A program made the position numbers and the translations under genes. The notes below the pieces were generated by a model. It ran no database searches and was not told where the DNA came from. It saw only the letters and a list, made by a program, of their open reading frames with translations. From positions 60,080,001 to 60,144,000 of the forward strand of contig OZ076409.1 in the NCBI GenBank assembly GCA_964187785.1: 64,000 bases of DNA. The letters are read 5' to 3'. Position 1 is the stretch's first letter. Every line of letters starts with the position of its first letter. This DNA is from Amphiscolops sp. MND2022. Lineage: Eukaryota. Of this stretch, positions 7,700 through 46,900 are shown in pieces.

Positions 7700-8123
7700 T
7701 TTTTAGGAGTCGGAAAAAATTTTCAACTACTTATGCAATCGTGACGTTTTTTTTCTCCCGACCTTTCAAGGAAAATTTCAAATTTCTCAAAAACTGTCCA
7801 TACGATTTCCATAAAAGTTTGCACAGTCATTCTACACCCAAAGGTGCTCCTGGCTGCGCAATGGCAATGGCACCACAATTGTATGAGTGTGATGTGAGAA
7901 ACAGCCAAAATTAGCCCAAAAATGACGAAAAACAATCAATTTTGGACTTTTTTCAATTTTCTCAGTAACTGTCAATACGATTCGAATGAAATTTTCTACA
8001 GTCATTCTACACCATATAAGGTCTTAATATGTGCAATTTTATCAAAATCGCATAACTGGGATTCAAGCGAGTCAGATGGAAAATGACCTAAGCCGACTCC
8101 TTTATCGCACATGCAGCTCTGGT
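7700..8123 (+). mobile_element. Helitron-like non-autonomous repeat, copy 2
   Basis: Shares CTACTTATGCAATCGTG...CCTAAGCCGACTC...CTCTGGTT with copy 1. Confidence 0.55.
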
Positions 8124-16447: not shown

Positions 16448-17240
16448 AGAATTGAGTTTTTCAAGGAATGTACATGTTTTATGTTAACCTAATAATAGTA
16501 AGCAGTTAGTATATGACATTGAAATTAGAACATTAAAGGTGAGCCGGCTTTCGAATCTACCAGCTTGTTTTCCATTTTGTGTAAGTTTTTCATCATTTTC
16601 ATCAACCTTTTTTCACCTTTCTCCAAATTTGTAGTATTTTTCATTATTCGGTTTTCATACCTTGTCTAACAAAGTACATCCATTATCATAATTGGATCTG
16701 AGCCAGTTGCTGAGAGCTCTCTGAAAATCTATGATACTATTGCTACCAAGTACACGAATGTAGAAGTGAGGGGTTCCCTGAGACGTCCTAACTCAGTGTG
16801 AAACCTCTTGTTATTCTTGATAAAAATCTTTGCAAGATGCTTATCAAGAGTGTCAAGAATTCGTACGACCCAACAATATCTTGTCATGAGTGTCAAGAGA
16901 AAAGCTAACAAATGTGAATGAGAATAAACAAAAAGTTTCGTCAACTTCAGCTTTATCAGTATCAAAGTCGTTGACGCTACCACCCCAGTTATCACAACTT
17001 GAAATTCAATGCTGTGCGTTGTCTTGTAACCAAAATGAGAGACTCTTACCAAGGGCTCTATTAAGAAGCTCAAGAGGTTTGTGTGAAGTAAAAATGAACA
17101 CGATTTTATCAAGGCTTTCAAAAGTGAACGGGAATATGTAAGAATGCGCAAGATTTTGGCAAGAGTTTCAAGATTTTTTGTAATAGGTAGTGAAACACCA
17201 TGTTTCAATACTTCCTGTTAGAAGCCTGTCAATGATGTTA

Positions 17241-18780
17241 GAAGTCAAAGACAAACTCCTTCCTTTGAACCCTTTCATTGACGAACGCCAAATTATACGC
17301 TCTTCCGGACGTCTACAATACGCACCGTTACCGGCAGCTACGCGCATGCCTGTCGTTCTAGATGCCCAGAACGCAAAAACCCGCCTCCTCATGGTACACT
17401 TTCACGAAATCTGCCACCACGCCGGTCCCGAATACGTCAAGTCATTTCTGCAACAACGTTATTTCATTTTTGGCGTCCGTGCCGCACTGCGCAACATCAG
17501 TTATCTTTGCTTCCAATGCCGCCGCTTTAGCGCCAAAAACGTCGAGCCAATGATGGCGCTCTTACCCCGATGCCGATTTCCATCCCCAGATACGCCATAT
17601 CCGTTCGCCAACTCCGGAGTCGATGCGTTTGGACCATTCTTCATTGTCAACGGAAAACGAACTGAGAAACACTACAGCCTGATCTTCACCTGCCTCGTCA
17701 CCCGCGCCTGTCATTTGGAACCTTGTCCCGCCTTGACCACGGACTCCTTCATCAACGCCTTCCGACGCTTCATTGCCAGAAGAGGACAGCCGCAGTACAT
17801 TGTTCTGACAATGGAAAAAATTTCGTTGGTGCCCGTCGTGAGCTTCAGGAAGCCTTGAACGCAGGTATCCGCACAGCTCTGCAAACTACTCCCCTAGCAC
17901 CCGAGATGGAATGGCACCTCAACCCGCCGTTTGCGCCGCACTTTCCAAACGGCCAAGAAAACTCTACTCCTCATCCTAGGATCCAGAAAACTGACTCTAG
18001 AACTGTTTCACACAATCCTTGCCGAAACAGAACTCATGCTCAACTCACGACCTCTGATCCATGGTGCCGACTACCCTGACAACGAAGAACCTCTGACGCC
18101 CAACCATTTTCTTCTCCACAGACCTTATGCAAACCTGCCACCTGGAGTTTTCAAAGATTCCAGTTATCAGCTCACGCATAAGTCTTGGAAAGAAACCCAA
18201 AAACTTGTCAACCATATTTGGAAGAGACTGCTAACTGAATACATTCCCACATTGCACCACCGGTCCAAGTGGAATCAACAACTATCACCAATTACTGTTG
18301 GAGAACTTGTGTGGGTGCTTCGAGACTTCCCTCCTCGTGGGATTTGGCCTATTGGGCGAGTGGAAGCTGTTTTCCCTGGGCGAGATGGACCCGAGTGTGT
18401 TCTGTAAAGACAGCTTACGGAACTTTCGAGCGCCCCGCCGTCTCTCTTTCCCGCGTTTTCGCCCCGTGACGGTTCGTTCGCCACGACTCTTTTCTGGAGA
18501 GATTTTTCCCGGTCCGCCCTCGTCTCCCCTCTCTTCTCCCTGCAGCTTGGGGGGCTGGAGCATGTCAATGATGATTCACAACATTGACTCAACATTAACT
18601 CTAAACTATTTTCAACTTTACTTCCTGACTTTTCACGTTTGTTTTCATACTTTTGTTCAAACTGTTGATCATACTGGTGACTCACTAAATGAAATATAAA
18701 ACGTTTCTTATAAAGCCTAATTTTCTCTTCGTGTGACCGAATAAACTTGGGTGAAAGAAGACCCCAATCATCGGGTCACA
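17241..18780 (+). mobile_element. 5'-truncated BEL/Pao LTR retrotransposon (integrase plus 3' LTR)
   Basis: Motifs HEICHHAG...CFQC, GVDAFGPF, FTCLVTRACHLE, RRFIARRG, SDNGKNF, LNSRPL, LTPNHFL and WPIGRV, spread over frameshifted ORFs 17190-18469. G-rich tract followed by a TGT...ACA segment 18563-18780 with AATAAA at ~18740. Confidence 0.9.
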
Positions 18781-25667: not shown

Positions 25668-26600
25668 TCGACTGTATAAAACGTCAACAACTCGGGTAAA
25701 CATTGATAGTTATTATCCGGAACGGTATTAACACCGCTCATTCCGGATAGGTACAAAAGTTGTAACACAGGTTTGTTGCGAACTCCCGCGCTAGGAGGGC
25801 TGTTTGGTGAGAAACAATTTCAAAATATAATCAAACAAATTTCTTCTTAAACTGTTCAATGAAAAAAAACAAGATCCTTCAGCGAGGCCCTTTTCACGAA
25901 AAAACCGCACAGTGCCAAAAATACCCAAACCGTAGAGCGAATAGCTAATTGTTCATTCTTTTTGATGTGGAAAAACGCCTCATTGGTTTTCATGAATCAG
26001 TTAATTAAAATAACATCAGATAAATAGATTTATGGTGTCCGGACATTACGCCCAAAGCGGACATTACCAATAGAAGACCGAGACATACAACATTCTTTCA
26101 AAATATTGGGCTTAATGTTCGCTTTGGGCTGAATGTCCTTGGACGTAATGTCGTAGCACCAAATATATTCATTAGGAATTATAACTCCTTTTTCCTAATT
26201 TTTCCCTCAAAATGCTTATTTCGTTAAATACATGTCGAAAATTTATTTAATATCTTCATAGATTTCATATTTCGGATGAAATTTTCTCCGGAAGCGTTCT
26301 CTTGCTGATTAAAAATTCAATTCAAAAAAATATTTAAATACTTGTTTTTCTTGATTTTCCTCAAACCAAAGAAATGTTTTCTCCAAATACTAAGCAGACA
26401 TGAGATGCAAAAAGATTTGGTCTATCAGTTCTCTGCAGAGGACCGTCAACTCTAGTAGGGTAAATGAAAAGTTCCGATTATAAACGTTCTGGACTGGCAG
26501 CGTTTGAACCCGCACTTCCAAATCTACATATTTACCGTTTTCCTAATTAGTCGCAGTTCAGTTTTTGGAGATTGTCGAATGAATTTTACTTTTAGCCCAC

Positions 26601-28299
26601 TGTCGCAGACGGCCGCCTGCGATGGAAATTGGTATACGATTGCATATGGATACTGCAGGGCTTTACCCGGAACAATCCCATTAGATTGAGAGGGCACAGT
26701 GATTTGAGCCAGGAAGTCCAAAGGAACTATTATCAGAACTTTTGTGATAAAAACTGTTTTGTATTATTGTATTACGTAATTCCATACATTTGATAATAAT
26801 ATTGCTCTTAGTTATGCGATAAAACATGCAATTATACTTAAATTTGCTTTAAATTGGACACCAAGGCGTACAGGTAGAGGAAACGCGTTCAAAGTGTTTC
26901 CTCTCCTGTCAGCGCAGACAAGCAGTCCAATTAAAATCAACCAATCACAGGACGCTATTCATTTATTTGCTGTGCTGTATTCATTCCCGTGCTGTATTCT
27001 AAATTAAGAGACTCAAAGGCCATATGCCGCCTAACTGACACAGTCTTTATACCAAACAAAGGCGCGTGGACACTGAGTCCAAAATTGAATATAAGCTGGT
27101 GCGAATACTAGAGATAGTAGTGTGCTATTTTAGAAACGATGCTACTTTAGAAACGCTTTGATTAAACTACATCTCTGAGATTACAAAAGGACTTCCAGTC
27201 CTTTCCCCCCCCATCTTTGCTTCCTTCCCAAAATATCTTGGGTAAAGAATTAGATGAGTAATTTATGCCATGGAAAGCTGTAAACAATGACCCATGAGTC
27301 TATGTACCATTTTGTGTGTACCTATTACATGTAATTAACATGAAATGTTCTACATGTAGTGTTGCTGATGAAATACAATTGAATGGCCTGAAGGGCCACA
27401 TGAACAATCATGAAAGTAGCTGCTACGTTTATATGCGTGCATATACATATACGTGTGTAAATGAATAACGTCATGGCAGTTACTATTTTTAGAAACATGT
27501 TATTACGTTTGTAAAGACACGTTGTCATACATGTCTATTTATAGAATGTTTGTTACTAAAATTAGACTGATGACTCTCAATATTATGTATGTCATGCAAG
27601 GTCAATTATAAATAACCGGGACCCGTGGTCCCGGGGACATAATTTTCCTATGACAAGTCACAGTCAGTTCGTTATTGAATAACCGAATAAAATACTGTTT
27701 GCAAGCTCAAAGATTCCAATTCAAATTCTTTACTCTTGCAACAATCTCTTATGCCTTCTACTAGACGCCAGAAAGCAAAGGCTAGAAAATCTAGAGAGAT
27801 GGACATGTTGTCCGATATAGAAAATATGGACGTGATGTTAGGAAATGGGGGTAGCAATCCCATAGAAAGAGAATTAACTGATGCTATTGAACAATCATCA
27901 GTACAGGGAGACGTAGAGTCGAATGAACACTTGGGAAATCAGTATACTAGCTTTGCTTATGAAAATAACCTTCCTAGGCAAGATGATATTAGACAATCCC
28001 TTGAGACCTTTTCAAATGAATTCAATCTCAGATTATCACAAGAAATGGATTCAATGATGTCCATGATGCATAGCCAAATAAATAGGGCTATCAGTAGTGC
28101 TATCGCAGAAAGGGTTTTCCCGAAATCCAGAACATTGTGAGTTCTATGTCCTCTTCAGTAAACAGGGACACTGAGGCCAGTGTATCGCCAAATAGCCAGG
28201 AAAACAGGGAATGTTCATCCGGGTTTAAATCAAAATTTGCAAAGAAGGACTCACAGTCTGCATGTGATTTAAGAGACATTGCAGGTCGTAGTTATTACA
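26601..28299 (+). repeat. 5' LTR (1699 bp)
   Basis: Starts TGTCGCAGAC and ends GTTATTACA. About 15 substitutions and one 1-bp indel (~28116) versus the 3' LTR, counted by eye. TATAAATA at ~27607, TCAGTT at 27664, AATAAA at 27686-27691. Confidence 0.97.
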
Positions 28300-29438
28300 T
28301 GGTGACAGGAGCTAACGAAACCCAACAGCCAATTCCCGAATTCCTGTCCGGACGAATCCACTCAATCCCAAACCTGGAGAGACAACAATCTAACCACAAT
28401 GTCTCTCTGGATACGACTCTGCCAGCTCCAGACCCTGAGGTCCCAGAGTCAACCCAGGACCCGCTCAACAGATTGGCTGACGTATTAGTCAATCTGCAAA
28501 ACAAACCACAAACGATGACCATCCGACCAGTCCAAACCACACCAATGACATTTGACGGGAAAAGTGAAAAATTTGAACTTTTTGAGGACCTGTTCCACAC
28601 AATGATCAAAATGCAACCGGCCATGACAGAGCAAATGAAAATTAACCATTTTCACTCCTTGCTCAGGAAAGGGGCCCTACAAACTTTCAGGAACATAAAC
28701 TCAATTAACCGTCAAACACTTGAGGACGTACTGGTCATATTCCGGAGGAAATACGTCAAACCGGAATCCCAAGCAACGGCAAAACATAAATGGCATCGGC
28801 TCACTTTTGACCCCAACACCATGAAATTGCCAGATTTCTTGGAAGAACTGAACCAGGGGGCAGAAAAAGCATTTGGCGAAAATGCAAAGAGCATGATTGA
28901 CAGCTTATTGTACGCAAAATTGCCTCCAAAACTCAAACGATCTGTCAACATGGCCCGCCTGGAGAACGGTACATACGAAGAAATTGTCGCTCATCTTGAA
29001 AGAGAGCTTGAACTCAATGCATTGGAAGAGTCTGATGACTTACCAATGGCCACCATGGCCTCTGCGTCTACCAGCAACAACAATTTGCTGTCGAACGGCA
29101 TAAATACCAATAAAGACGCACAATGCTCTTATTGCAAAGCCACAGGCCACTTTTATAAGAGCTGCCCCAAACTGAAAAAGAAGACGGAATTGGAGGACAA
29201 AAATGGCAAAAAGCCCCAACGCCCTACATACCCAGAATGCCCTACTTGCGGAAAGAAAAATCACCCCGTTGAGAGATGCTGGAAAGGGGCTGGAGCACAT
29301 TTACGCCCCAAAAGGACACGTCCTGAAGATAAGGCTGATGACACCTCTGGAGATGAAAAATCATACAAGAAGTCAACTAGCCCCGAAACCACATCTTCAA
29401 GTCATTCATCTTCTCGAAAAACCGATTCAAAAAACTAA
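27751..29438 (+). pseudogene. gag: Gag (~562 aa reconstructed; one 1-bp deletion at ~28116)
   Basis: ORFs 27736-28140 and 28137-29438 fuse when the A present in the 3' LTR copy (AGGGTTATTCCC) is restored. Capsid-like region TFDGKSEKFELFEDLF...HFHSLLRKGAL. Two CCHC knuckles: CSYCKATGHFYKSC and CPTCGKKNHPVERC. Confidence 0.92.
28300..28312 (+). promoter_or_regulatory. Primer-binding site, tRNA-Leu-like
   Basis: TGGTGACAGGAGC immediately follows the LTR terminal CA. It resembles the TGGTGTCAGGAG type complementary to a tRNA-Leu 3' end; the tRNA identity is tentative. Confidence 0.8.
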
Positions 29439-32400
29439 TTTCGCCACGACTCCAAGTTTCCAACCAGATGTCAGTGCGACAATATGTCATATCTGACCCA
29501 CCAAACATTATTTATAAACAAACTCAAAACGATACCACAGGAATGCCATCGACTGTCTGGCAGCAGCAAATGGCCAACGCCCGCATGGAAACTCAACATA
29601 TTATCCATAGCGACCACCCATACTTATATAGACGTACTAGCTACGACAACGACTCGGAAACTCACTTTCGCCCCTTACAAACTGTCGAAGATTATAACCC
29701 TCAATACTATGACCCCGAGTATGGCAAAGACCCGTACTGGGACGAAGAACTATATGACAAAACCAATTTACAATTTCGAAACGAAGATTACCCTCCAACT
29801 GACGACGAGGACGACCCAGACATTGAAGACAACACACTGTCTCGGGCCCTCATTGATCTTTGGCAGCCAAATTTTGATGCAATAATACAAGGAGTAGACG
29901 CCACTCAACAACAGGAAGGCCACAAAGCCTCTAACAGCCTTTTAGATGAAACGGCCTTCCTGCATCTCTTAGTGGCCAAGGAAGGAGAGCCATCCTACGT
30001 TCCCCTTTCAACAAACCTTGGGCTCAAATTTAAAAGACGAATGCTCTATTTCCCAATGGATTTTGGAGAGTTAACCCTAGACGGCCTAATCGACACTGGA
30101 GCCCACTCCAGTGCAATACCGGAAGCAGACCTTAGAAAGATACGCCTATTGGCCCCCCAGTCGATAGTAAAAGAAGGCCCTGCTCCATCTTTCCAAATAA
30201 TGGTCGCAAATGGTGATTTAGAAACCCCAAAGAGCACAGTCGAACTAAAATTGGAGGTGGGAGACATAGAATTTCATGAAATCTTCATTGTAATGGAAAA
30301 ACTGTCTAGCCCCATAATTGGACTGATGTTGCTGCAGAGGAACCACACCGTCCTGGACATGCGCCAAGGTATACTCAATTTCCCTTACTTCTCGATGCAA
30401 TTAAAAACGGCCGACCACAAGTATTCCAATGTAATGGAGCCAATTCTCAACCCTGAAGACATCACCATTCCTCCGAATGACCTTGCAGTCATCTCTATAC
30501 AGTCCCAGATCTATGCCGAAAATGCAGTCACGGGGATATTACAACCCAGTGACCTCCTCCATGAGGAAGGCGACGTCACATTTTGCGCCGCCATAGTCAC
30601 ATTGCACGAAGGGACTATGAACATACATGTCAATAATTTCACTGATCAACCCTACAAACTTAAGAAAGGGTTACATATTGCGAACTTCTCAGTGATGACT
30701 CCTGAACAAATGAAACATGTCCGACCAATAGACCCGGTGTCCACCTGGCATCTATTGAACGGAAATGAGGAAGACGCCATTTACTATTTTAGCAGCCTTC
30801 TTAAGGCCAATAAAAACAACGACCAATATGAACAGTATTGGTTCCCGACACCTGAGAACCCAGGGGACGAAACAACACATACGCCCATCCAGCAAAGAAT
30901 TCACAGAGAATTACGAAATCTAAAAGATATAGAAAATCTTAACCCGCAAGACAATGCTGAATCTAGACAAAAATTCCTTAGCAATTTTGACTGGAAGGAT
31001 TCAATGCTACAACAGCATGAAATCAAACAAATAGAAGCTCTTTTGGTAGAATTTAATGACATCTTCGCCCGACACAGATTTGATATCGGCGTCAACGAGG
31101 AATTTACGGTCAAATTGACCCCGAAGGACGATTCATCAGCTTATAGCCGGAGCTTACCTACCCCAGTCAATCTCAAAGAGGATATATTGGTGGAACTGGC
31201 TTTACTTCATAAATATGGTATTATAACGACACTACCATTCTCAAAGTATGCCAGCCCCATATTCGCCCAGAAAAAACCCAATGGCAAATTAAGACTACTG
31301 GTTGACTTGAGGAAAATTAATAATCTCATATCTGACGATTATATCAATAACAATCACCCAGTCAGCACCTTAACGGATGCCGCGCAGCATATGGCCGGGA
31401 AAAAGCTTTTCTGCAAACTTGATTGCTCGCAGGCCTATCATTGTCTCCCAATGGCCGACCAGAGGTCTATTGAAATGCTCGCTTTCAATTTTGCTAGCAG
31501 GACCTTTGCCTACCGCAGATTGGCGCAAGGCCTCAGCAGAGCCTTATCGGCTTTCTCCAGTTTTATGCGAGAGTATTTAGACCGGGTGATCAAAGCAGAT
31601 CAATGCGCACAATATGTGGACGACATTGGCATCGCAGCCAATGATGCCGAACATCTCATAACCAACCTCAGGGCTCCTTTTGAATGTATCAGACAAGCCG
31701 GACTCAAACTGTCCATGCACAAGTGCCACTTTGGCACTACCGAAATTGACTTTCTAGGGAGAACCATTACCCCTGAAGGTGTAAAACCCCAAAAAGAAAG
31801 AATCACTAACTTCTTGGAAAAGACGAAATTCCCAAAGTCCAAGAAGGCCTTACAACGCTATCTTGGTTTCCTCAATTACTACAGGAATTATATTCCAAGG
31901 CTATCCGAAAAACTAGTTCCCTTCTTCCAATTGCTCAAAAAAGATGAGAAGGTACTAGTGACGCGAGAGCTGGTTGAACAATTTACTGAGATCAACCGCG
32001 ATTTAGACCGATGTAGTCAATTGGCGTTGAAACAACCTCTGCCGAACAAACAACTGGTCCTCATGACTGACGCAAGTTTTACAGCAGCCGGTTACGCCAT
32101 ATTGACCGAAGACGACCCAAATCAAAAACACACTTCTGTTAAAAAATCCTATGCGCCGATTGCATACGGATCTAAAACTTTCACGCCTTCTCAGCTCAAA
32201 ATGTCGATATATGCAAAGGAATTCCTAGCTATATATTATGCATTTAGAGACTTTGGACATATATTCTGGGGAACACCTCAACCTGTGATTATTCTCACAG
32301 ATAACAAATCGGTTACGAGGTTCTTCCAAACCAAGATAATTCCACCGCCACTTTGGAATGCTTGTGATTTTGTAATTCAGTTCAACTTCATCATAGCTCA

Positions 32401-34541
32401 CATTCCAGGCAAGAACAACACAGCGGCAGACTACCTGTCCCGCAGGGAAATGGACCCCACTGAAAAGTTGGTCCTGAAAATACGAGAGGACGTAGAAACT
32501 AGACCGATCGAAGTCAATGTCCAATCGGCCGGCGTGTCAGAGGAAGAGCAAATTTTCTTCACTGAGGAGGACAACGAAACAGAAGAACAGATTTGGGAAC
32601 GGAAAAAACAATCCAAAAAAGGACTCATGGTCCCTGAGACAGTCATCCACATTGATGCCATATCGGAAAATACAATAGAAGAAATTACCAATTTCACACA
32701 AAAATTACGACGAACTAACCAGATACATACTGCTTGAACAGTGTAAAGACCCGATTCTGCTCCAATTGAAAGCAAAACTTCAAAAGGAAGAATTTGCTGA
32801 AGAAATCCTACAACAAGATATTCGGTATAAGTACTATTTGAACAATATAGACCGAATAGTCCTTAAAGACGAAATTGTGACAAGACAGTACTATGACGAA
32901 ATTGGCCAGATCAAATATCATCAAATTCTGTTACCGAAGCACTTAGTTCAAGAACTATTACAAGCAATACATGGTACAGCACATCGCCATCCAGGCATTT
33001 CTAAAATGCTACAGGAAATTCGCCAAAAATATTACTACCCAGGAATTGCAAAACATGTCAAAAAAAGGGTCGAAGGATGCGAAACATGTGCCAAGGACAA
33101 AAGGGCCCCCAACACGGTAATTACCCCAGAATTACTAAATTTGCCCGAATGGGACCTAGGGCCAGAAGATGCCATGCAAATTGACTTATTACCAAATTTA
33201 CCAACCAGCGGCGGATACCAAACAGTGATGACTGCAATAGACGTATTTTCAAGATATCTTTTTGCCTAGCCACTCACTGAGGCAACAGCCGCAAATGTAG
33301 CTAAAGTCATTATCGATATAATGACAAAACACTCGTATTTGCCAACAACACTCATCACGGACAAGGGGTCCGCATTTACCTCAAAAATTTTAGAAGAAAT
33401 TACTGAGATATTGGGAATCACACTGAAATGCGCCACTACTAAACACCCGCAAACTATTGGCAAACTTGAAAGGACTCACGCCTCTTTAAAAACCAACCTG
33501 AAGATGGCCTCAGGGGAATATCGTCGTCAATGGCACAAATATTTACCATTAGCAGTGCTCAACTATAACACTACTTATCACGCTAGTAATGGTTGTGAGC
33601 CTAGCAAAGTCTTCCATGGCCGAATCCCCTACAATGTCCTTGATCATAAATTAGGAAATAACCCTAATAAAAATTTCCTACCAACAACTGAATTTGCGGA
33701 AGAATTACAGCAGAGGACGCAAATCCTCATTGATCAGACAAAAAAGAATATTATGCAGTCGTATTTAAAGTACAAGGAGTACTACGACCGCAAGGCCAAA
33801 GCGGCTCCGCTACAAGAGAAAGACTACTGTTTTGTTCTTCAACCGAAAGCGGATAGTCAAGGCTCCAAAATACCATTTAGGGACTTCCGATGGATTGGTC
33901 CCTTTGTCGTCCAAAAAACCCTACCAAATAACAATTATATAGTGCGTCGTTTAAATACGAATAAAACGCAGATCTTGCACCGGATCAGGCTCAAAAACTT
34001 TGTTCCAAACACCCCATTAGAGGACAAATTTAAAGAAGAGAAATTACAGCCTGATGAGGAGATAGTAATACCGCAAGATGATTTGTATACCATCTCATGG
34101 GAAGCGGACTTTGAGTACGAGCTATTCGAGCCGAAGACAAATGATTGGCCACACACGGCCACGCGTCTGCCACAGGACGCCGCGAACGGAGAAGTCGACT
34201 ATTACGTCACCGAGAATGAAAGCAGCAGCGTAAACGAAAGTGAGCGCAGCAGCGAGAGAATGAATGACAATGACGTCAACGAGAATGAAGTACGGCCAAG
34301 ATCGGCCAGCATCCGTGACGCGTCGTCCCCTCCGAGCGAATCGCCTAGTAGGACGGAAAATGAAAATGACGTCACAAATGATTTAGAAAATGAGAAAATT
34401 GCTTCAAAAGGAGGCGTAGATATTACCGTGCCCGGAATATCGGAAAATGAAAGAAATGAGGAAAATCCTAGCCCTAGAGGAGGGAAATGTTATCTTCGAC
34501 CTAACCCCAACCCCAACTTTACTGATGAATAAAGATACTAG
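29435..34541 (+). pseudogene. pol: Pol polyprotein (protease, RT, RNase H, integrase) with few lesions
   Basis: Protease LIDTGA; RT LRLLVDLRKIN, KLDCSQAYH, YVDD; RNase H LMTDAS, YAKEFLA, ILTDNK, ADYLSR; integrase HGTAHRHPG...CETC, QIDL, ITDKG, KLERTH. Lesions: 4-bp ATAC duplication at 32723-32730, in-frame TAG at 33267-33269, probable premature TAA at 34530-34532 (FTDE*RY*). Confidence 0.95.
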
Positions 34542-34766: not shown

Positions 34767-37700
34767 TTAAGGCTTAGATGCAGATTGCACGGGCCCTGGA
34801 GTAGAGGAACCTCCCATCGGTGGTGATGCTGATCGGAAACCTACTTTCCGTTTCCCCTTCCCAGGAGACTCTTTTCGACGCTTGCTAGTAGTAGGTGAGG
34901 TGGACCTGGAGGCCGAGCGACTGGAAGATGGCGACTTGGTTTTCTGTGAGAGAGACTTATGCTTCTGCCAAAGAATCTTGTAGAAATGAGCTTTTCCAAA
35001 TACATCAACATGAGTCCAAGGGTCTCCAGCCACATTGCCTGTGTTGAATTCCTGCTCTATCTCTCGTAACTTGCTGAGAGAATCATCCTTGGTGCAAATG
35101 GATAAAGCTTCAGTAACCCGGGCCAGGTAGGATTGTGCAGGCAAAAGGACATCTCCCCAACTACACTTTGGCCTTTGAGCGTGAACATCGTGGAAGCGGA
35201 TGGGGGGAAGCAAAGGAGTGTTTTCAGTTAAGCACATACAGCTTAATTGGAACAGGCGGTAAAGATGAGCCCGATTACGGAGTTCAGGCATGGAAGAAAG
35301 CAAATTGATCATGTCGGGAATACCGTTAGGGGCGTCCTTCAAAGAATGGTAGGCCTGGCGGAAATGTCCAATAAAATCCAGGTACTCATCGCGGCAGTCA
35401 TTTTCAGGCGAACCTTCAAGCCAACCTCGGAGACTGAAACTCTGGTAAAGCGCACTGAAACAAAAGTTGGCTTGCTCGAGCGGTAGACACAAGAGGATGC
35501 TAGGGTCGAAGCAGGCCATCCCACACACAATGTTGGCGTTTAGACTAACATGGCCCAGAAAGTTCTCTAAGAGGGGTACAATATAACTCCTCGCCTTAGC
35601 TACAAACTTCTCCTTAGCCTCTTCAACCAATGAGGTCATGTTGGAAATAGGCCCCTCTTGGTCACAATGGTCTCGTTTCACCTTGGCTGTTGCGGCAGCA
35701 TCCAGGTCTTGCTTTAACCTCAACCGAGTGAGGAAATCTCGAGAGGACAATTGACGGAGATCAGCAGTTCGGAGCACGGGCAACTGCGTCCAGTCAGTAT
35801 CTTTGGGGAGGTGCTTTGGTAAGAGGGCCCGATAACAGAGTTTTCTTACAAAGTTGTTCAGCTGGCCGAAGGTAAAAAACCCCGAATCTCGGTGTCCCAC
35901 CAGGCTCCTTTCGAAACAGATGTTATCTAAACAGTGAGAACGAATAATAGCAAACTGCCCTCAACGTCTCCTGGACTTACCAGACTAGTTCTCCTCCCTT
36001 AAACATGAAGTATGAAGCCTAGACAAAAGATACTTACAATCGTACACGATTCTTCCGTAGAACTCCAATTTCAGCAAGAAGAAGTCGTCGCTGATGATTT
36101 GCCACTCAAGGCTTTGTGGCTAAAAGGAAACAAGAATCACCAGCTATGATCGGGCTATAAGGGGGTAGGAATCAAACCATGACCTAAACCAGCTAATAAG
36201 GCAAAATTCCAACCTTGTTCTTGACTCCAGCCATTTCATAATTGGGTGCAATCAGAGTGATGTGGTCCAAGAATGCTGTCCAATTCACTATGATCTCCGA
36301 GCATATGGTGGGGATAGAAAGGAGACGCAAATCCCAATTGCTAATGGCCCACAAAACAACCTGACGTGATAAAAATGTACGAGGAACTCGACTTTGAAGC
36401 CCAAAGCATAAAAACCAACCTTAGAGAGTTCAGGGGCTTTGACCATCCAAGGCTCGTCCAAACTGTGGGTTAGATATGCCAGCAGATATTTGAGTTGCGA
36501 ATAAAAATCGATTCGCCCAAAAACACTTCCTTCTCGTTTGTGCATAAGTTTGTGGAGAGATGTCACTTGGTAACGAAAAGGGTACTCGATACTCTTCTTT
36601 AACAAGGAAGACTCCTCAACGGCACGAAGAACACTAGCAGTACATCCACTCATGCAGACTATCTGGGGGGCTGTGGACAAGAGTGACAAGAGTCGTGCCA
36701 CGACGAGTAATTGACTTCGATCAGGATCAGCGGCCAGGCTGTACTGGAATAACTGGAGCTTCACGAAAAACCCTAACTTCCAGTAACGGAGCGATGCAAT
36801 CTCCTTGCTTCCCTGTGGCTCAAATTCGATCGAATATAGTCCGCTGTCATTAACTGTCTGCGCCACATCCTCCATTCCACGTAGGAAAACGTGATGGAAA
36901 ATAGCCTGAAACAGAATTCTTACTTAAAAGAATATAGAGGACGAATAGTTTGTTATGGATCCTTCCCCTTTTTCCCCAAACCCATAATTAAAGATGAGGT
37001 CAGTTAACGCTACACATACCGTGATTCTGGTGGAACTCCAGTCAAGATTCCCGAACAGCTCCTGGTGATTAGTGAAATTGCCGACCTCTGTCCAGAGTCC
37101 TTGCAGGGTCGCGAGATCGCCGAAGTACGGGACAAACCGCCCAATCAGAGATATTTGAGTCCCTGACCGGATGTCTTCAAAATTAGTCAATCCCCCTGCA
37201 CTTGACATATATTCGTCATAGAAGGGGAACCGTGGGCCGATGTCAACTAGAGGAACTGACTCAAATAGTGGCTTTTCTTTCTCCAGCTCAAACAGGGTAA
37301 GGATGTGCCCATCTCTTCCTCTGACGGAATGAATGACGTTGCCAGAAATTTTGTCGACCTTGCCAAAATGCTCAAACCTCCATCGCTGGTCTCTACGCAA
37401 ATGGCCCTCGGAGCTGTAATGCCGGATGATCTCTCGTGCACCTTTCGAATATATAGATACGTTGGTCTTACATATCTGGCAATAAAATTTGTGCTTGTTA
37501 TGCACGGGGTCAAGGGGGCCGGTTACAAACACTTTTGTCCACTGTATTCCCTTGAAGTAGGAGGACTTCATCACCTTGCCAGGTCGTGGTTGCAGTTTGC
37601 GCCTTTTTTGAGGAGGGCTAACTTCGGAATGTTGATGCTTGGTTTGTGGACACATCTGACAGAGAGGCTCATAGTCGCCCTCGCTGTACCCTGGACTAGG

Positions 37701-38794
37701 GATGGTGACATCTCCTGATTGTGATGTCACGTTTTCTCTCCTCGTCGCAAGTGTTTGAGTTGCGGAGGTACTTGCATCGGAATCAACTTCCTGACCGAGA
37801 ATTGTACCGGTTATGTCTTCATCAGTCTCATATGCTCCGCTGGTATACCCGTCAGTCGTATAGCCTTCACTGTCCGATTCCCCTTCAGAACTAGCTGATG
37901 TGGCCCTTGCAGGAGGCTTCCTCGGATCAGAGCTTTTCTAAGCTGCCCTGTAGTGTGTCCCTTTCCTCCGTGGACAGCATGCAAAACCAACGACCGCATG
38001 GCATGCAGAGAAGACTTCACAGTTTCATCCGAAATTGTTTTTAGCACGGCATGAATTTGGGGTTCGGTGAACGCAACTGTAGTATGTCCCCGAGGAAGGT
38101 CAACGGGGGCACTTTGAGCGAAATGTTTACGCAGCATAATTCGCCCATTAGCTGACAACTCCGTTGGCAGGGAGGGCCCTTTCTGTGATGAAGGTCCTTG
38201 TTGACTGGTGGTGTTTGAACATTCGGGCTCTGGGGATTTTCCTGGTGCAGTTTGTGGATCAAGTTCAACTATGCTGGATGTGGGCCTGTCAGTCAATCCG
38301 TCCACGCCCGCACTGTCGTAGACGCTTTCAACTTCACTGGCATCCGTCTCAAAATAACATTTTCTCTGCTCTTCTCCGATGTCAAAAGTACCAAGATCGA
38401 ACAAGTCGGCTTTCTTCTGTTGTCCAATGTTGGCCTGCTCTGTTCCAGACTGTGAGGCGGATAGGGCCTCTGACTCAGAAACCTTGGGAGGATGTGGGCC
38501 TGCCTCTCCTTGGGGGAAACCTTCGCTTGGTGCTGACAAAAATGTGACGTCCAAACTAGAATCCATCTGAGCTAAGTGATGTAAGGTCTGTTCCGCGAAT
38601 GTGGAAAGGCTCTCTTCAGTGTTGCCACTGCTCGAAGATAGGTTGGACAAAGGACGAACTCCAGGGAGGACATCTATCTCAGTCGGTCTCTTCCCTTGGG
38701 AAGGGTCAGCATGCCGCTCTGGCAAGCCTTGGACAGGAACGCCGGGACCAGCAGTAGTCAATTCACTATTTTCAGTTTGCTGTTCAGTCGCCAT
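34767..38794 (-). CDS. Spliced antisense accessory gene; hAT-transposase-like protein with BED-like zinc finger (~1216 aa; one frameshift at ~37915)
   Basis: Exons 38794-37020, 36905-36420, 36360-36214, 36119-36038 and 35926-34767. GT-AG introns of 114, 59, 94 and 111 nt join these exons in frame with no internal stops. Zinc-finger motif CQICKTNVSIYSKGAREIIRHYSSEGH. Confidence 0.85.
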
Positions 38795-40059
38795 GCCTAA
38801 GCAAAAGGAAATAAAATCAAGCGGGAACCTTCCTGAATAAGAATCCATCACCGCTTTAAAAATATTCTTCCGGAAGTGAATAATCTGAACTCGAGTGAAC
38901 ACTAGAGTTATTGGACAGGAAGTACGTGAACGGAAGAGAGTTCTGATCAAACCTCAAAAGTTCAATTTTGAAACAGAAAACTGAAAAGAAACCTTAGCCT
39001 ACTGACCTGTTTGAGCGTGGTCTCCAGGGAACTTGTTGTCGGTGTCCTCCATGAGAAAGGATGTATTGAGACAAATTGTTGTTGCTCGGTGCAGATGGTA
39101 AGATCACTGTGGTGGGAGTCGCAAAGCTGGGGACTGGATGTCGATTTTCCGCAGTGTTCCAGAAGAATCCACACGGATAAGGACGAGTGGACACTGAGTC
39201 CAGGGATGAAGCCGGAATGTAATGGAATGAAAATATAAATAGAAGTGACCTAAAGTCTAACTATCGACTAAAATAGAAGTGGATAAGTACAATGATGGTT
39301 AAATACCGGATAATAGAAGAACAAAAAGTTAAATTGAAAGTAAGGAATTGAAAAGACGAATAGGCGATGTGACAAGATGTCAAGATTGGAGTTCGTGGCT
39401 ATACAGTTTGGTGTCAAATTCATTGCTATTTACAATTTATGGCATTATGTGGATAGAGTCTGCCAGCGATATCTACATTTTCCTTATTTATTTCGAAAAC
39501 TTTATTTCGCAAAGTTATTTCATGATTTTATTTTATTTTATTTTACTTTATTTTGTTTTCAAGGCCATATTATTTTATTCCTTATATGGATTTACGGCCT
39601 TGGATCGCCATTTTATCAATGGAATCATATTTACGAAATTTGATTGGTTACCACCAGGAAGGCGAGACAGCGTGGCCTCCGACCGAATTCTCACCCTCTT
39701 AAAACTTTCAAAAGGACTATGAGTGTTAATAAACACTCATCTCGGTACTTAAGAAGTGAAGGTGATGATGAGGGCCATGAGTGTCAATACTGCCGCTGTC
39801 GGCAATTTCAAAGTGATTATAATAACTAGTTAAAAGAAAGTTACCCGGAAAATTTTGTTATTGAAAAATAACTCGGAATCGAAAAAGGAAAACCCGGGGA
39901 ATAGCAAACCGGGAGGCAACGAGACTCAGCGGACTGATAAGAGAAACGATCGCCATTATTAATTTTTCAATCGATCAGATCAGTCGCTCTAGAAAAGCCA
40001 CCTCGACTTGAAACTCTTACATTATCAAAATTGCCAAGAAAATATTAAAAACCAGATCA

Positions 40060-40880
40060 ATGTCTGATTTTCCTGAATTGTTCCCTATGGACTTCCTGGG
40101 TGCTGCTCTATCTGAAGGGGCTCCTGCAATAATTTATATCTCAAGTGATGAAGACGAGAGAATGGACTCCTTCGACGGAGACTCGGTGGATGACGTTAAC
40201 GTTTCATCTGAAGAAGAAATGTCAGACATCGAAATTATGGCGAGATGTGTAGAAAGACAAATGGCTGAACCCATTGCTATTCCTAACTCTGAAAAATCTG
40301 AGACTCAAGTTAGGTGCGGAACGCCCAGACCGGACTTACCGCCCTTCCCCGTCTTCACTCAGCACTTTTTCAACCTGGGCATGGGCAATGGGCCTATTGG
40401 GAGAGATGGCCGTGTAAGACCTAACCACCCTATCAATATCTGCAGGGACTTACGACCTAACGTAGATAGCCCAATGTCACCACCGCCAGAAGACAGAGGG
40501 CCGAATTGTGGACAAGAAACACCAAGCTGTTCCTACTCTACGGACCCTACCCCGGTCGAAAGCGTGGCTAACCACTTCAATGACATGACGGTGTCTGGGA
40601 ATGCTGGCTTACTGGGCTGCTCAGACTGTGTGGTCTGCGGGAAACCAGTCCAGCAAATACAAGACGAGACAGTCAACGACTACCTCAGCAAAACAGTTGT
40701 CCCAGGAGAAACACTGGCTGAGACTGAGAGAAGAAAGAGAGCTTTCTTGGACGGCATGGCAGCTGGAACATTTTATTAATGCCAGGGGGAGTGTCGCAGA
40801 CGGCCGCCTGCGATGGAAATTGGTATACGATTGCATATGGATACTGCAGGGCTTTACCCGGAACAATCCCATTAGATTGA
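40060..40880 (+). CDS. Accessory sense ORF (ORF3), unknown function; probably extends into U3 after a 1-nt deletion at ~40774
   Basis: 239-aa ORF 40060-40779 with an acidic N-terminus and CSDCVVC. Adding one T to the TTTT run continues it as FLLMPGGVSQTAACDGNWYTIAYGYCRALPGTIPLD* to 40880. Confidence 0.7.
40784..40791 (+). promoter_or_regulatory. Polypurine tract
   Basis: AGGGGGAG directly before the TG of the 3' LTR. Confidence 0.8.
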
Positions 40881-42491
40881 GAGGGCACAGTGATTTGAGC
40901 CAGGAAGTCCAAAGGAACTATTATCAGAACTTTTGTGATAAAAACTGTTTTGTATTATTGTATTATGTAATTCCATACATTTGATAATAATATTGCTCTT
41001 AGTTATGCGATAAAACATGCAATTATACTTAAATGTGCTTTAAATTGGACACCAAGGCGTACAGGTAGAGGAAACGAGTTCAAAGTGTTTCCTCTCCTGT
41101 CAGCGCAGACAAGCAGTCCAATTAAAATCAACCAATCACAGGACGCTATTCATTTATTTGCTGTGCTGTATTCATTCCCGTGCTGTATTCTAAATTAAGA
41201 GACTCAAAGGCCATATGCCGCCAAACTGACACAGTCTTTATACCAAACAAAGGCGCGTGGACACTGAGTCCAAAATTGAATATAAGCTGGTGCGAATACT
41301 AGAGATAGTAGTGTGCTATTTTAAAAACGATGCTACTTTAGAAACGCTTTCATTAAACCACATCTCTGAGATTACAAAAGGACTTCCAGTCCTTTCCCCC
41401 TCCATCTTTGCTTCCTTCCCAAAATATCTTGGGTAAAGAATTAGATGAGTAATTTATGCCATGGAAAGCTGTAAACAATGACCCATGAGTCTATGTACCA
41501 TTTTGTGTGTACCTATTACATGTAATTAACATGAAATGTTCTACATGTAGTGTTGCTGATGAAATACAATTGAATGGCCTGAAGGGCCACATGAACAATC
41601 ATGAAAGTAGCTGCTACGTTTATATGCGTGCATATACATATACGTGTGTAAATGAATTACGTCATGGCAGATACTATTTTTAGAAACATGTTATTACGTT
41701 TGTAAAGACACGTAGTCATACATGTCTATTTATAGAATGTTTGTTACTAAAATTAGACTGATGACTCTCAATATTATGTATGTCATGCAAGGTCAATTAT
41801 AAATAACCGGGACCCGTGGTCCCGGGGACATAATTTTCCTATGACAAGTCACAGTCAGTTCGTTGTTGAATAACCGAATAAAATACTGTTTGCAAGCTCA
41901 AAGATTCCAATTCAAATTCTTTACTCTTGCAACAATCTCTTATGCCTTCTACTAGACGCCAGAAAGCAAAGGCTAGAAAATCTAGAGAGGTGGACATGTT
42001 GTCCGATATAGAAAATATGGACGTGATGTTAGGAAATGGGGGTAGCAATCCCATAGAAAGAGAATTAACTGATGCTATTGAACAATCATCAGTACAGGGA
42101 GACGTAGAGTCGAATGAACACTTGGGAAATCAGTATACTAGCTTTGCTTATGAAAATAACCTTCCTAGGCAAGATGATATTAGACAATCCCTTGAGACCT
42201 TTTCAAATGAATTCAATCTCAGATTATCACAAGAAATGGATTCAATGATGTCCATGATGCATAGCCAAATAAATAGGGCTATCAGTAATGCTATCGCAGA
42301 AAGGGTTATTCCCGAAATCCAGAACATTGTGAGTTCTATGTCCTCTTCAGGAAACAGGGACACTGAGGCCAGTGTATCGCCAAATAGCCAGGAAAACAGG
42401 GAATGTTCATCCGGGTTTAAATCAAAATTTGCAAAGAAGGACTCACAGTCTGCATGTGATTTAAGAGACATTGCAGGTCGTAGTTATTACA
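40792..42491 (+). repeat. 3' LTR (1700 bp)
   Basis: Near-identical copy of 26601-28299, preceded by a purine tract and followed by the TSD CCCAC. Confidence 0.97.
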
Positions 42492-42499
42492 CCCACTGA
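41942..42499 (+). CDS. Intact LTR-encoded Gag N-terminal segment (185 aa) in the 3' LTR
   Basis: ATG 41942 (MPSTRRQKAKARKS...) stays open to the LTR end and stops 8 nt into the flank. It is the same sequence as the gag 5' part. Confidence 0.75.
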   Translation: MPSTRRQKAKARKSREVDMLSDIENMDVMLGNGGSNPIERELTDAIEQSSVQGDVESNEHLGNQYTSFAYENNLPRQDDIRQSLETFSNEFNLRLSQEMDSMMSMMHSQINRAISNAIAERVIPEIQNIVSSMSSSGNRDTEASVSPNSQENRECSSGFKSKFAKKDSQSACDLRDIAGRSYYTH

Positions 42500-43023: not shown

Positions 43024-43931
43024 GTACCTGTTTGAAACCTAGATCATGCAATACTCGTTCATTGCAAGATCTTGTGTATACTGATTGAGGCAACATGCAA
43101 TCCTTGCTATGAATGAGTGATCTTACAAAAATATGATATCCTTGCAATAATTTTACAAGAAAATTTATTATTGCAGGATCTTTCGAGCAAACATTTCCCT
43201 TCCGAGAAATTGCAAGAAACCTAATTCCATATAAGAATTTTGCGAGGAATACATTGCTTGCAAGGATCTTGCAAGAACCCATTATAGACAATGATCTTGC
43301 GAGCTTCTTCCATGCAATTCAAAACAATGCATTAACTTGCAAGATCTTGAAAGCTTTTTGGAAGAGCTTTGTATATAAAGCATATTTCTTCAACCAAGAC
43401 AAATAAACAAGTTTCAGGGAGTTGGCAAAATCAGAATGACACACCCAACAAATTTCAATCAATTTTGTGAATTTTTTTCTCACGCAATTGTGTGCAAAAT
43501 ACATCTGGCTCCACTATGAAAACACGAACAAAACACTTCTATTTGACACGTCAATGGTCTAAACAAAACAGACAAAGTTTTCAAGAATTGAAGTTGTTGG
43601 TCTTGTTTGATCTGTGTGATAAAGTCTCTATCAAAAAATCAATCATAATTAGTAACAATTAGGAAAGTAAAATTCAATAAAAGAAAGACAGTGACATTTT
43701 GAACGAAAAAAAAAAGAAATTTAGGCGACAATAAATTCAAAACAAAAAAGTCTAAAACCAAAGTTTGAATTCCAGGTACTTCAATCCAATTTTCAAACTT
43801 ACTTTTTCAGGAGCCTTGTTTCAGTTATGCAATTTCTGTCAGGCAAAAATGCATGCACGTCAGAAGTCAACTTTTCCTCAGAAACTTTGAGCAAAGAAAT
43901 CAATATAGTTATATTTTATCAATACTGTATA

Positions 43932-46900
43932 TGTAGTATTTTGAAAAGGTTACTAGGTAAAAACGAATTAGTAGTAGGAGATTTCTTTATGGCTCAATAT
44001 GAAAGATGTTCACGACTTTTTCTATCTACACTCTAGCAAAACATGTATAAAATGGTATCACGATTTAGTACAAACAAAAAGGGTTGTTAACAAATACAAC
44101 AAAACAAAAGAAGTCATTTGATAATTGCTAGTCTAAAGTCGTCATTGTTTTTGATTGGCACTTTTTTCCGAATAATTCGGTTCGGTATTTTACACCGTAT
44201 AACCGGTTATCAGTTCTCCATCCGCGTGGAGATTTAGCTCGTCTTCCGGTGATGTTGTAAATGGCCGGTATCCGTCTCTTTCGGAAGTGTCATTGTTTTC
44301 GAAGTCGCTCTCTTCGTCTTCTACCTCTCCTTCTTAGCTCTCAGTGTCGGTTTGGGCTTTTTTATTTTGCACTCTTTGAGTTTTCCGTTTAATACATCCC
44401 TCAGGATTTCATTCCATTGGATGTATTTGCCGTCGACTCCTCTCAGGCAGTGTCTGTTTTTCGGGGTGATGGTGTCTCCGATCTTCGGTGCACGTTCTGT
44501 TTTCTTTTCTTTCGAACTTTTCTTTTTCGGTGATTTTTCTGTCATTGCTTTCTCTTCTGTGTTTGTCTGGGCAACGACAAGATGGTTTGATACTTCTCCG
44601 TCACTGTTGCGTGATATAATATTGGTATCTTCGGTCTACTTTCGGCTGGAACGGATCATTTCAACCATTTAGACAGGAATGATTTACCGCCTTGTATTAA
44701 ATTTGTACGTTCGGTTCTCCGTTTTCGGCTGTGATGTAATTCAAATGGTGTTTTTTCAATCCCGTGTGTATTTTAAGTAGCATTACGTTAAATGCTCTAA
44801 TTACGCAATCGGTGAAACACAGACTGTCTTCCAGATTGGCTAATATTAGGTTCTTCGTCGTCTGTATAGCACCTTCTCCCGCGCCGGTGCCGGTATGTAG
44901 TCTCAGTGTACTATATTCGATTTCAATACTTCAGGATTTGCAAAATTCTTTATATTCTTTCGACTTAAACGCTCTGCCTTCGTCAAGTTCAATTTTTTCG
45001 AGAAGTCCGTATAAATTGAAATTTTGGTTTAAGAAGCTCAATTCTTCTTTTGTTTCCGACGACTTGCAAATTTTTGCGGTTGGCCATTTACCGAACCTAT
45101 ATACGGCTATTAATAGTTGTTATTCGCCGTTTAATTTTTTGTTGTTCAATTTCCCGGAGAAATCATTTTTTCTATTTTCCCGGTTCGGTTAATGTTTGTA
45201 GTTCTCTTGTTTCATTTTTTGGTGTTTGATAGATTAAATTCTTACCCGATGCCATGCAATCTACACAGAATTTTTTTCGGTCTTCGTTATCTATGGAGAT
45301 GCTTGGCCACCAATATACCCGGGCTTCGGTTAGCATTTTAGTTGTTTCGGCGTGGCCGAAGTAGTGTTTCCATTAGGTTCTTTCTCAGTTCTGCTGAGAC
45401 AAAAATTTTCTCGTCGTTAAATGTTTGTCCCCATGTGTTGCATAACTTCTCAAATGTCGGTAGATATTGCTCTAGTGCCGTGTTCTTCTGTCCTCGTCTC
45501 ATGGCATCTCTGAACTGGTTGAGCTCGGCGTCGGTGGCGGACGCAGCAATGAGCGTCTTTAGGTCAAGCATGAAGTTGAATTCTGCTTTTTTTCACTTCT
45601 TCGGCGGCAGTTTTGTCTCCGGTCTTCTTGTCGATGATTTGGTTGATTTGGATAAAATGTGCTTCCTTTCCGTCAGCGTTGTAGGCCTTCAATTCTACGA
45701 TCGGGAAGTTGTCTCCTACGGTCTTCTGTCTTTTGCCTTCACTCTCCAGTTCATTCTGTTCGACCTCTTCCCGTGGCTGATTTTCTTCTTTTCTGTCTTT
45801 GAGTGGCTGGTATCCTCCGTCGAATCTATTTGCTCGGTTGAGCAATTCTCCGTCTATTTCCGCTAATTCTTCGCGGCTCTTTTTATTGGGTCTTGGCGGA
45901 ACTCAAACTTGGCGTTGACCATTCAGGTCAAACTTCCTTCTCATCGTTCCGGGGCGTGATACTAGCCTCCGATCCACTAGTCTCCGGGCTTTTTTTCCTC
46001 TAATTATCTCCATGATTTCTGCGGTATCTCCCCAGTGAAAGTAATCTTGATCCATGTTTCTCTTTGGAGAAAATTAATTTGGTGAAATTTGATTTGAATT
46101 TTTGTCGGTTGAAATAAAAGTTTCGAACTTTTCTCGGTAAGTGATGCAAATTTCGCTGTTATGTGCTGTTTCTTAACGTTTCAGTCTTCGTCGAACGTTC
46201 TAATGCGTTTTGGTTGGTTGTGAGATTTTATTTCGCTCGTTTTACGTATTTCGGTAGTGCTTTGTGATTCGTCCGCGAGAAGTGAGCCGTATTAGATGTT
46301 TATTTCGGCTTGCTCGGAAAGAACATTTATCACGTATTTTTCATCCTACGCGTTTTCGGTCGTTACTTCTTCTACCGCATTTCTACTTAGAAAGTCGGTA
46401 AACTCTAAATTACTTCCTGCAATGTGTTGGAGGGCATTATCAAAGTGAGCTAATCGATCTAGCCATCTTGTTAGCTTTGCGCTGTATTGTTTATTACACC
46501 AGTTTCTTTTAATCAACGGTTCATTTGCTTGATGGGTCTGTATAACGAAAGACTTTCTTCCCGTATAAATAAAATCAAATTTTTGTAAGCCCGATACCAC
46601 GGCTAATAGTTCCTACTCTCCAATCGAAGAGTTTTTCACTTTCGTTTAAGTATCTGCCACCGAATGCTATCGGTTTAATTTCTCCGTACGATTGTTTTTG
46701 ACACAATGTTATTCCAAGACTTGCGTCGGTCGTCACTATGTTTTCCCGGTCTTTCGCATAGTGAGCCAGACAGGGTTCGTCGGTTAATAACTTCTTAATG
46801 CTCTTGAAATCATCTTCTTGTTCATTTCCCCAATCCATTGGGATCTTTTTTAATAGTCCTCGCAGTCTTTCGGTCCTTTCCTGTAGTGTCAGTAAAACTT

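Follow-up and report, generated by a model that had tools for sequence, protein, structure and literature searches.

An LTR that likely encodes the N-terminal third of Gag in a Ty3/gypsy-type element of Amphiscolops

The analysed window, a stretch of 64,000 nt from Amphiscolops sp. MND2022, contains a 15.9-kb Ty3/gypsy-type element whose 1.7-kb long terminal repeats (LTRs) are 99.1% identical (Table 1). The last 550 nt of the LTR form a single frame that is joined to gag across the LTR end and the primer-binding site (PBS). The gag frame opens about 183 codons before the LTR end and is very likely translated from position 27751 as one Gag protein of about 562 residues, so that the LTR, besides its part in regulation, likely supplies a third of Gag. 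Because this frame is kept, fused and conserved, we infer that an RNA containing both position 27751 and gag must be translated.

Table 1. Features of the element, in coordinates of the window.
Feature	Position	Strand	Basis or remark
Left target-site duplication, 5 bp	26596..26600	.	same 5-mer at 42492-42496
5' LTR, 1699 nt, TG...CA	26601..28299	+	LTR alignment, ends, target duplication
TATA-like box	27607..27614	+	sole TATAAA of the LTR; putative function
Perfect 8-bp inverted repeat, 3-nt spacer	27616..27634	.	between TATA-like box and initiator
Initiator-like TCAGTT, predicted transcription start	27664..27669	+	motif
AATAAA, predicted poly(A) signal	27686..27691	+	3'-LTR copy at 41877
LTR-encoded N-terminal part of Gag, 183 codons in intact copies	27751..28298	+	LTR alignment, relatives, conservation
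Junction ATG, Gag codon 184	28299..28301	+	last LTR base and first two PBS bases
Internal part of gag, 379 codons	28299..29438	+	linker, capsid, zinc knuckles
Primer-binding site (PBS), putative extent	28300..28311	+	adjoins LTR directly; TGG start; in-frame reading (M)VTG
pol: protease, dUTPase-like, RT, RNase H, integrase	29381..34532	+	Pfam
A AAA AAC slippery heptamer	29429..29435	+	just ahead of gag stop
Polypurine tract (PPT)	40784..40791	+	adjoins 3' LTR
3' LTR, 1700 nt	40792..42491	+	LTR alignment
Open 3'-LTR copy of the Gag N-terminal frame	41942..42499	+	183 codons, LTR part stop-free
Right target-site duplication	42492..42496	.	5-mer CCCAC, matches left copy

In pairwise alignment, the two LTRs (26601-28299 and 40792-42491) show 1684 matches, 15 mismatches and one 1-base gap. 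The notion that the LTR border is mis-drawn, a copy-specific duplication having stretched the repeat over the start of gag, is scarcely tenable: the TG...CA ends, the 5-bp target duplication, the PBS and the PPT all adjoin exactly the drawn LTR ends, and an identical breakpoint was found in 55 of 57 relatives with unrelated tails (see below). The flanks and the recurring breakpoint refute it. A primer tRNA matching the PBS was not found within the window, an acceptor-stem pattern scan for it returned 116 loci of which none (0/116) was a tRNA gene, and Rfam gave no match within the element. A stem spanning the LTR/PBS junction folded no better than shuffled sequence (63/200 shuffles).

In the 3' LTR, the frame starting at ATG 41942 runs through 183 codons to the terminal A without a stop and meets one two codons into the host flank. 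In the 5' LTR, a one-base indel near 28117 disrupts the frame from 27751, which ends at a stop at 28138-28140, after 129 aa; the post-break frame passes the junction as RSYY-MVTGA into the 379-codon remainder of gag. Three substitutions separate the LTRs inside the frame; all are non-synonymous, and they are uninformative for drift after insertion. The layout described in the first-pass annotation is borne out by these readings, including an ATG at 60 nt past the AATAAA, a 3'-LTR copy open for 550 nt to the terminal CA, the RSYY-MVTGA joint (in the post-break frame), a junction ATG built from the last LTR base and the TG of the PBS, and a basic N-terminus, which can be read directly from the sequence.

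A stop-free frame of at least 183 codons arose, in any frame on either strand, in only 38 of 20000 random LTRs with the same dinucleotide make-up. Searching the LTR frame against longer proteins yielded 195 relatives, and 118 of the 120 listed run in frame into the Gag core; most of these fused proteins measure 560-562 residues. As such a search selects for fusions, the reverse search was made from the Gag core. Among the best 120 of its 4628 matches, 113 carry at least 160 upstream residues, six a partial extension and one none, in a protein set that displays open frames only and whose 90% clusters favour long representatives. At least 56 members of four clusters were obtained, and among the members listed 34 have at least 540 aa and 22 are shorter; the latter comprise seven core-only fragments, 12 proteins in which the LTR frame has an unrelated tail, and three truncated fusions. 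The claim that the 3' third of the LTR is coding and forms part of a Gag of about 562 aa has accordingly held up, natural proteins of 560-562 aa being the family norm and conserved blocks being present in the LTR part.

Four families of relatives were distinguished, whose identity is 68, 46, 37 and 31% over the LTR-encoded residues and 86-94% over the capsid region; the last three, with 86-93% over the capsid region and 185-195 residues ahead of xMVTG, were reached by a profile of distant matches. The fusion is kept in all four: xMVTG follows after 183-195 residues, the tip is basic and a long helix is predicted. The length of the LTR part varies across families between 181 and 195 residues, and alignments A3 and A4 show no exception to Met1.

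The position of the LTR end in relatives could be read, in the protein set only, from the tails left by 3' or solo LTRs. Among 150 listed representatives at the 50% level (out of 672), 67 extend as far as the frame does; six of these continue into Gag, four terminate at that point, and the other 57 have unrelated tails. In 55 of these 57, similarity ends with codon 183 and the residue that opens the tail can be encoded by an A-initial codon; the 55 include all 49 in which it follows Tyr or His (background 0.42, binomial p 8e-19). Such a fit is predicted because the LTR ends in CA. When short proteins were pooled, the A-codon tail was found in 66 of 67 from the window's family, in 2/2 from the 46% family and in 1/1 from the 37% family; no row of the 31% family passed the filter, and one relative in that family fits by eye. 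Within the protein set, the tails show that the LTR end sits at codon 183/184 across the family, and the opening of the Gag frame inside the LTR is confirmed family-wide. Two proteins carry the 183-residue LTR frame in unusual company: P0053 (913 aa) has it fused in frame to the Gag of another element, and P0049 (645 aa) to RT/RNase H/integrase of the same family. Both fusions are probably nested insertions or deletions.

Conservation within the LTR part is uneven. Identity is 65-83% at residues 1-40 and 46-80% at residues 85-130, and falls to 11-41% in the linker at 41-84; none of 10000 column permutations was as clustered. Thirty-six columns are identical in all four families, as compared with 6.4 expected under independence. 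Inside the conserved blocks, which were named after the alignment had been seen, changes are conservative: their mean BLOSUM score is +0.3 to +0.5, and neutral single steps score -0.28. Taken over the entire LTR part, the mean is -0.02 to -0.48, and the substitutions are then no more conservative than neutral ones. These data bear on an alternative in which the open frame is a by-product, U5 being kept for reasons of DNA or RNA and Gag starting only after the LTR. The linkers do drift as neutral sequence would, open frames are all that protein databases display, and the conserved blocks could stem partly from constraint at the DNA or RNA level. Nevertheless, this alternative is very improbable: it would have to accommodate the rarity of such a frame in random LTRs, an in-frame fusion that persists at 31% identity with lengths of 181-195, an invariant Met1 and conservative changes in two blocks. 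In addition, neutral drift over these family distances would lead one to expect 4-13 stops per comparison, a figure to be read with the visibility of open frames only in mind.

If the LTR part is read as a piece of Gag, it would supply a basic RNA- or membrane-binding tip (residues 1-20), a conserved acidic-hydrophobic motif (residues 17-40) and a long helix (77-133). The helical segment claimed in the first-pass annotation survives as a prediction: AlphaFold places a long helix at 77-133 with a pLDDT of about 65-77, within a low-confidence model (mean 48.9). The LTR-encoded part gave no Pfam match at the cut-off and no usable Atlas match, and a homodimer prediction for residues 72-138 scored 0.02, which is not evidence either way. 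The module would probably be an oligomerising, matrix-like unit ahead of the capsid; the matrix-like role is put forward as an interpretation because the model is of low confidence and Pfam and Atlas are silent on this part.

Downstream of the junction, the capsid region of Gag showed weak fold matches to PNMA2 and retroviral capsids, none of them at E<=0.001, and a comparison of Gag features with the Atlas gave matches to Ty3_capsid/Retrotrans_gag/zf-CCHC clusters at 0.92-0.94. The pol frame lies at -1 relative to gag, and frameshifting between the two would take place at the A AAA AAC heptamer. In this copy pol is broken twice, by a frame change near 32.7 kb and by a stop at 33267-33269. A capsid-type Gag with CCHC knuckles, the order PR-RT-RH-IN by Pfam, TG...CA LTRs, a target duplication of 5 bp (4-6 bp in the group), a PBS and a PPT all agree with Ty3/gypsy (Metaviridae), and the integrase-before-RT order that defines Ty1/copia was not found. 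Against solved structures (PDB), the RT matched foamy-virus RT (E 3e-16) better than Ty3 RT (3e-11), and on sequence grounds the lineage may lie near the retrovirus side of Metaviridae. Within the RT (31160-31780, +) the motif RLAQGL corresponds to MPFGL in Ty3 and LPQGF in foamy virus; a dUTPase-like segment (~30450-30700, +; Pfam E 0.012) lies between protease and RT. Two other placements were considered and rejected. Retroviridae and Loki-Odin elements are described as marked by a tether domain with a second RNase H after it (PMC12440569), and here Pfam matches comprise a single gypsy-type RNase H between RT and integrase. Troyka elements are described as having CG...CG ends and a 3-bp target duplication (PMC12440569), and the present ends are TG...CA with 5 bp.

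Further reading frames were observed in the same element as the LTR-coded Gag, together with the slippery site at 29429-29435. An antisense block of about 4.2 kb (34767-38953, -) contains frames of 397, 211, 337 and 380 codons, a C2H2/BED-like finger by a weak Pfam match only, and GT...AG-like borders between the frames, an arrangement that suggests a spliced antisense gene. An extra sense frame of 255 codons (40012-40779, +) with a Cys-rich end lies just ahead of the PPT and has no Pfam match. Elsewhere in the window, a BEL/Pao-type integrase remnant (Integrase_H2C2, DUF5641) is located at ~17187-18407 (+), and a second, degraded LTR element with protease and RNase H remnants and ~120-nt repeats 89% alike at 43930-49219 (-). 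Short tandem arrays of ~173-nt units occupy 1970-2295, 7776-8103 and 61262-61845.

The promoter elements of the LTR follow the canonical order TATA-INR-AATAAA. A distance of about 50 nt, greater than usual, separates the TATA-like box from the initiator. Upstream of 27664 there are 31 ATGs, and the stretch between the initiator and 27751 is free of them. The initiator can be compared with the INR motif TCAKTY (PMC3601003). The inverted repeat at 27616-27634 is GC-rich within an AT-rich LTR and recurs in the 3' LTR at 41807-41825; seven of 200 shuffles folded as well. From these motifs, to which the assignment of U5 is also due, a transcription start near 27665 and a split into R and U5 are plausible. 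If transcription starts at the initiator near 27664, 27751 would be the first AUG. The AATAAA, 22 nt past the initiator, would be skipped at the 5' end, where it is cap-proximal, and used at the 3' end, leaving a short R of about 45 nt and a nearly entirely coding U5 of about 590 nt. As in Ty1, ribosomes would read across the PBS of the same RNA, and the N-terminal module would be copied in a minus-strand strong-stop DNA of about 635 nt and hence duplicated into both LTRs.

The same translation would result if the LTR were divided differently, with an earlier start or a later 3' cleavage and the coding sequence lying largely in a long R. We consider this rather unlikely, although the borders of U3, R and U5 are stated to need RNA data (PMC3601003) and a second AATAAA exists at 28077. 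That hexamer overlaps the codons Q-I-N, which read Q-I-S/T/Q/E in other families, so it was rejected as a conserved signal; an earlier start would bury the AUG behind the 31 upstream ATGs, and the canonical order of the signals likewise argues for the short R.

A separate question is whether, besides full-length Gag, a capsid-containing isoform of about 379 aa starts at the junction ATG, arising from a promoter within U5 or from internal initiation and perhaps acting like p22 as a brake on copy number. Met184 is nearly invariant, the capsid and zinc knuckles all lie downstream of the junction ATG, three more TCAGT motifs occur within the U5 frame, and Ty1 p22 is described as made from an internally initiated mRNA (PMC4974528). 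Yet CA followed by TGG without a spacer yields this ATG by construction. It is preceded by 19 ATGs from 27664 onwards, one of which (28146) is already in the post-break gag frame; it has a T at -3, codon 184 is Ile or Leu in the single copies P0082, P0131 and P0301, and an RNA starting just upstream of it is without support. The terminal CA of an LTR is recognised by integrase, and the TGG of the PBS is complementary to the CCA of the tRNA. Since CA + TGG forces an ATG and VTG is the PBS itself, conservation of Met184 and VTG says nothing about initiation. The junction Met would be an ordinary internal codon, and the short isoform is decidedly unlikely. Of the two isoforms proposed in the first-pass annotation, that of about 562 aa agrees with the protein length usual in the family, and that of about 379 aa is not supported, given the forced ATG and the 19 ATGs ahead of it. 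The accompanying idea that it bypasses this copy's frameshift fails as well: with pol broken too, there is nothing to rescue. A p22-like product is conceivable but finds no support here.

LTR part and Gag core do not always travel together. Among 156 full-length proteins, one Gag-core cluster pairs with five LTR-part clusters. In 148 proteins of the window's family, 4295 pairs share a core identity of 95% or more, and in 37% of these the LTR parts are less than 80% identical; the identity profile along Gag was drawn from pairs picked on these same core and LTR identity values. For one clear recombinant, core data reject its LTR-part group (p-AU 1.6e-5) and the reverse test was not significant (p-AU 0.17), the groups having been chosen after the trees were seen. 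This recombinant switches near residue 130, not at the LTR/PBS junction. Template switches at the strong-stop step would reshuffle the N-terminal module against the Gag core, and the observed pairings would fit reshuffling at that step or close to it; the LTR part also evolves faster, which contributes to the mismatch.

With this layout, strong-stop DNA would be unusually long, ribosomes would translate through the primer site, a Gag module would be duplicated into every LTR, and hundreds of 3' or solo LTRs would have a ready start codon and a frame open into host DNA. Annotation pipelines take LTRs as non-coding and seek gag past the PBS; here, such annotation would overlook a third of Gag and place its start wrongly. 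A further proposal, which we put forward as speculation with the odds against it, is that all 3' and solo LTRs of this abundant family act as stop-less expression cassettes whose fragments, each a basic tip with a long helix, co-assemble with full-length Gag as a brake on copy number, that in-frame fusions such as P0049 and P0053 seed chimeric proteins, and that first-strand transfer swaps the module between subfamilies. If true, the brake would grow with the number of solo LTRs, the swapped module would be a fast-evolving, host-facing cassette, and each cassette would consist of a promoter, a start codon and a 183-residue Gag module reading into whatever follows. The layout offers a direct test of LTR recombination reshuffling protein modules and of solo LTRs restraining their own family.

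A description of a long, domain-sized, LTR-encoded Gag N-terminus was not found by an exact-phrase literature search, outside whose scope lay subscription papers as well as Repbase and GyDB. The closest precedent is Ty1 of Saccharomyces, with which the element shares a start codon in the LTR and a frame read through the LTR end and the PBS. In Ty1, about 13 codons of gag reportedly precede the PBS. Its gag is described as beginning in the 5' LTR (PMC3522557), and its PBS as occupying nt 94-104 of the RNA, within the GAG ORF and with only 93 nt ahead of it (PMC4974528). From the nt-94 position given there, at most ~31 codons precede the PBS, in contrast to 183-195 here, which include a conserved helix. 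Unlike in Ty1/copia, the domain order is of the gypsy type. Ty3 (Ty3/gypsy) is resembled in PR-RT-RH-IN, TG...CA LTRs, 5-bp target duplication, PBS and PPT, as well as in a frameshifted pol and an AATAAA in the LTR, as described in PMC3601003. The Ty3 PBS segment, however, is placed by the 5' UTR and not in gag in the account of PMC4974528, whereas here a third of Gag is LTR-encoded.

Truncated LINE-1 ORF1p, consisting of the N-terminal domain and coiled coil, inhibits LINE-1 according to work cited in PMC10951436. The likeness lies in an N-terminal, helix-bearing piece without the downstream domains, as would come from a 3' or solo LTR; LINE-1, however, is a non-LTR element, and the fragment here is predicted from sequence alone. 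A further comparison concerns coding sequence that is duplicated as part of the LTR.

Genes overlapping U3 in the 3' LTR are exemplified by HIV nef, MMTV sag and the C-terminal extension of CRM-type integrases. All of these share with the present element that protein-coding sequence is duplicated as LTR part, but they lie in U3 and are read at the 3' end of the RNA. In contrast to these genes, the frame described here is located past the promoter, forms the beginning of the main structural protein and is stop-free within the LTR. The principle is that of Ty1; what is new here is the scale, the domain content, the mosaic LTR parts and the stop-less 3' and solo LTRs.
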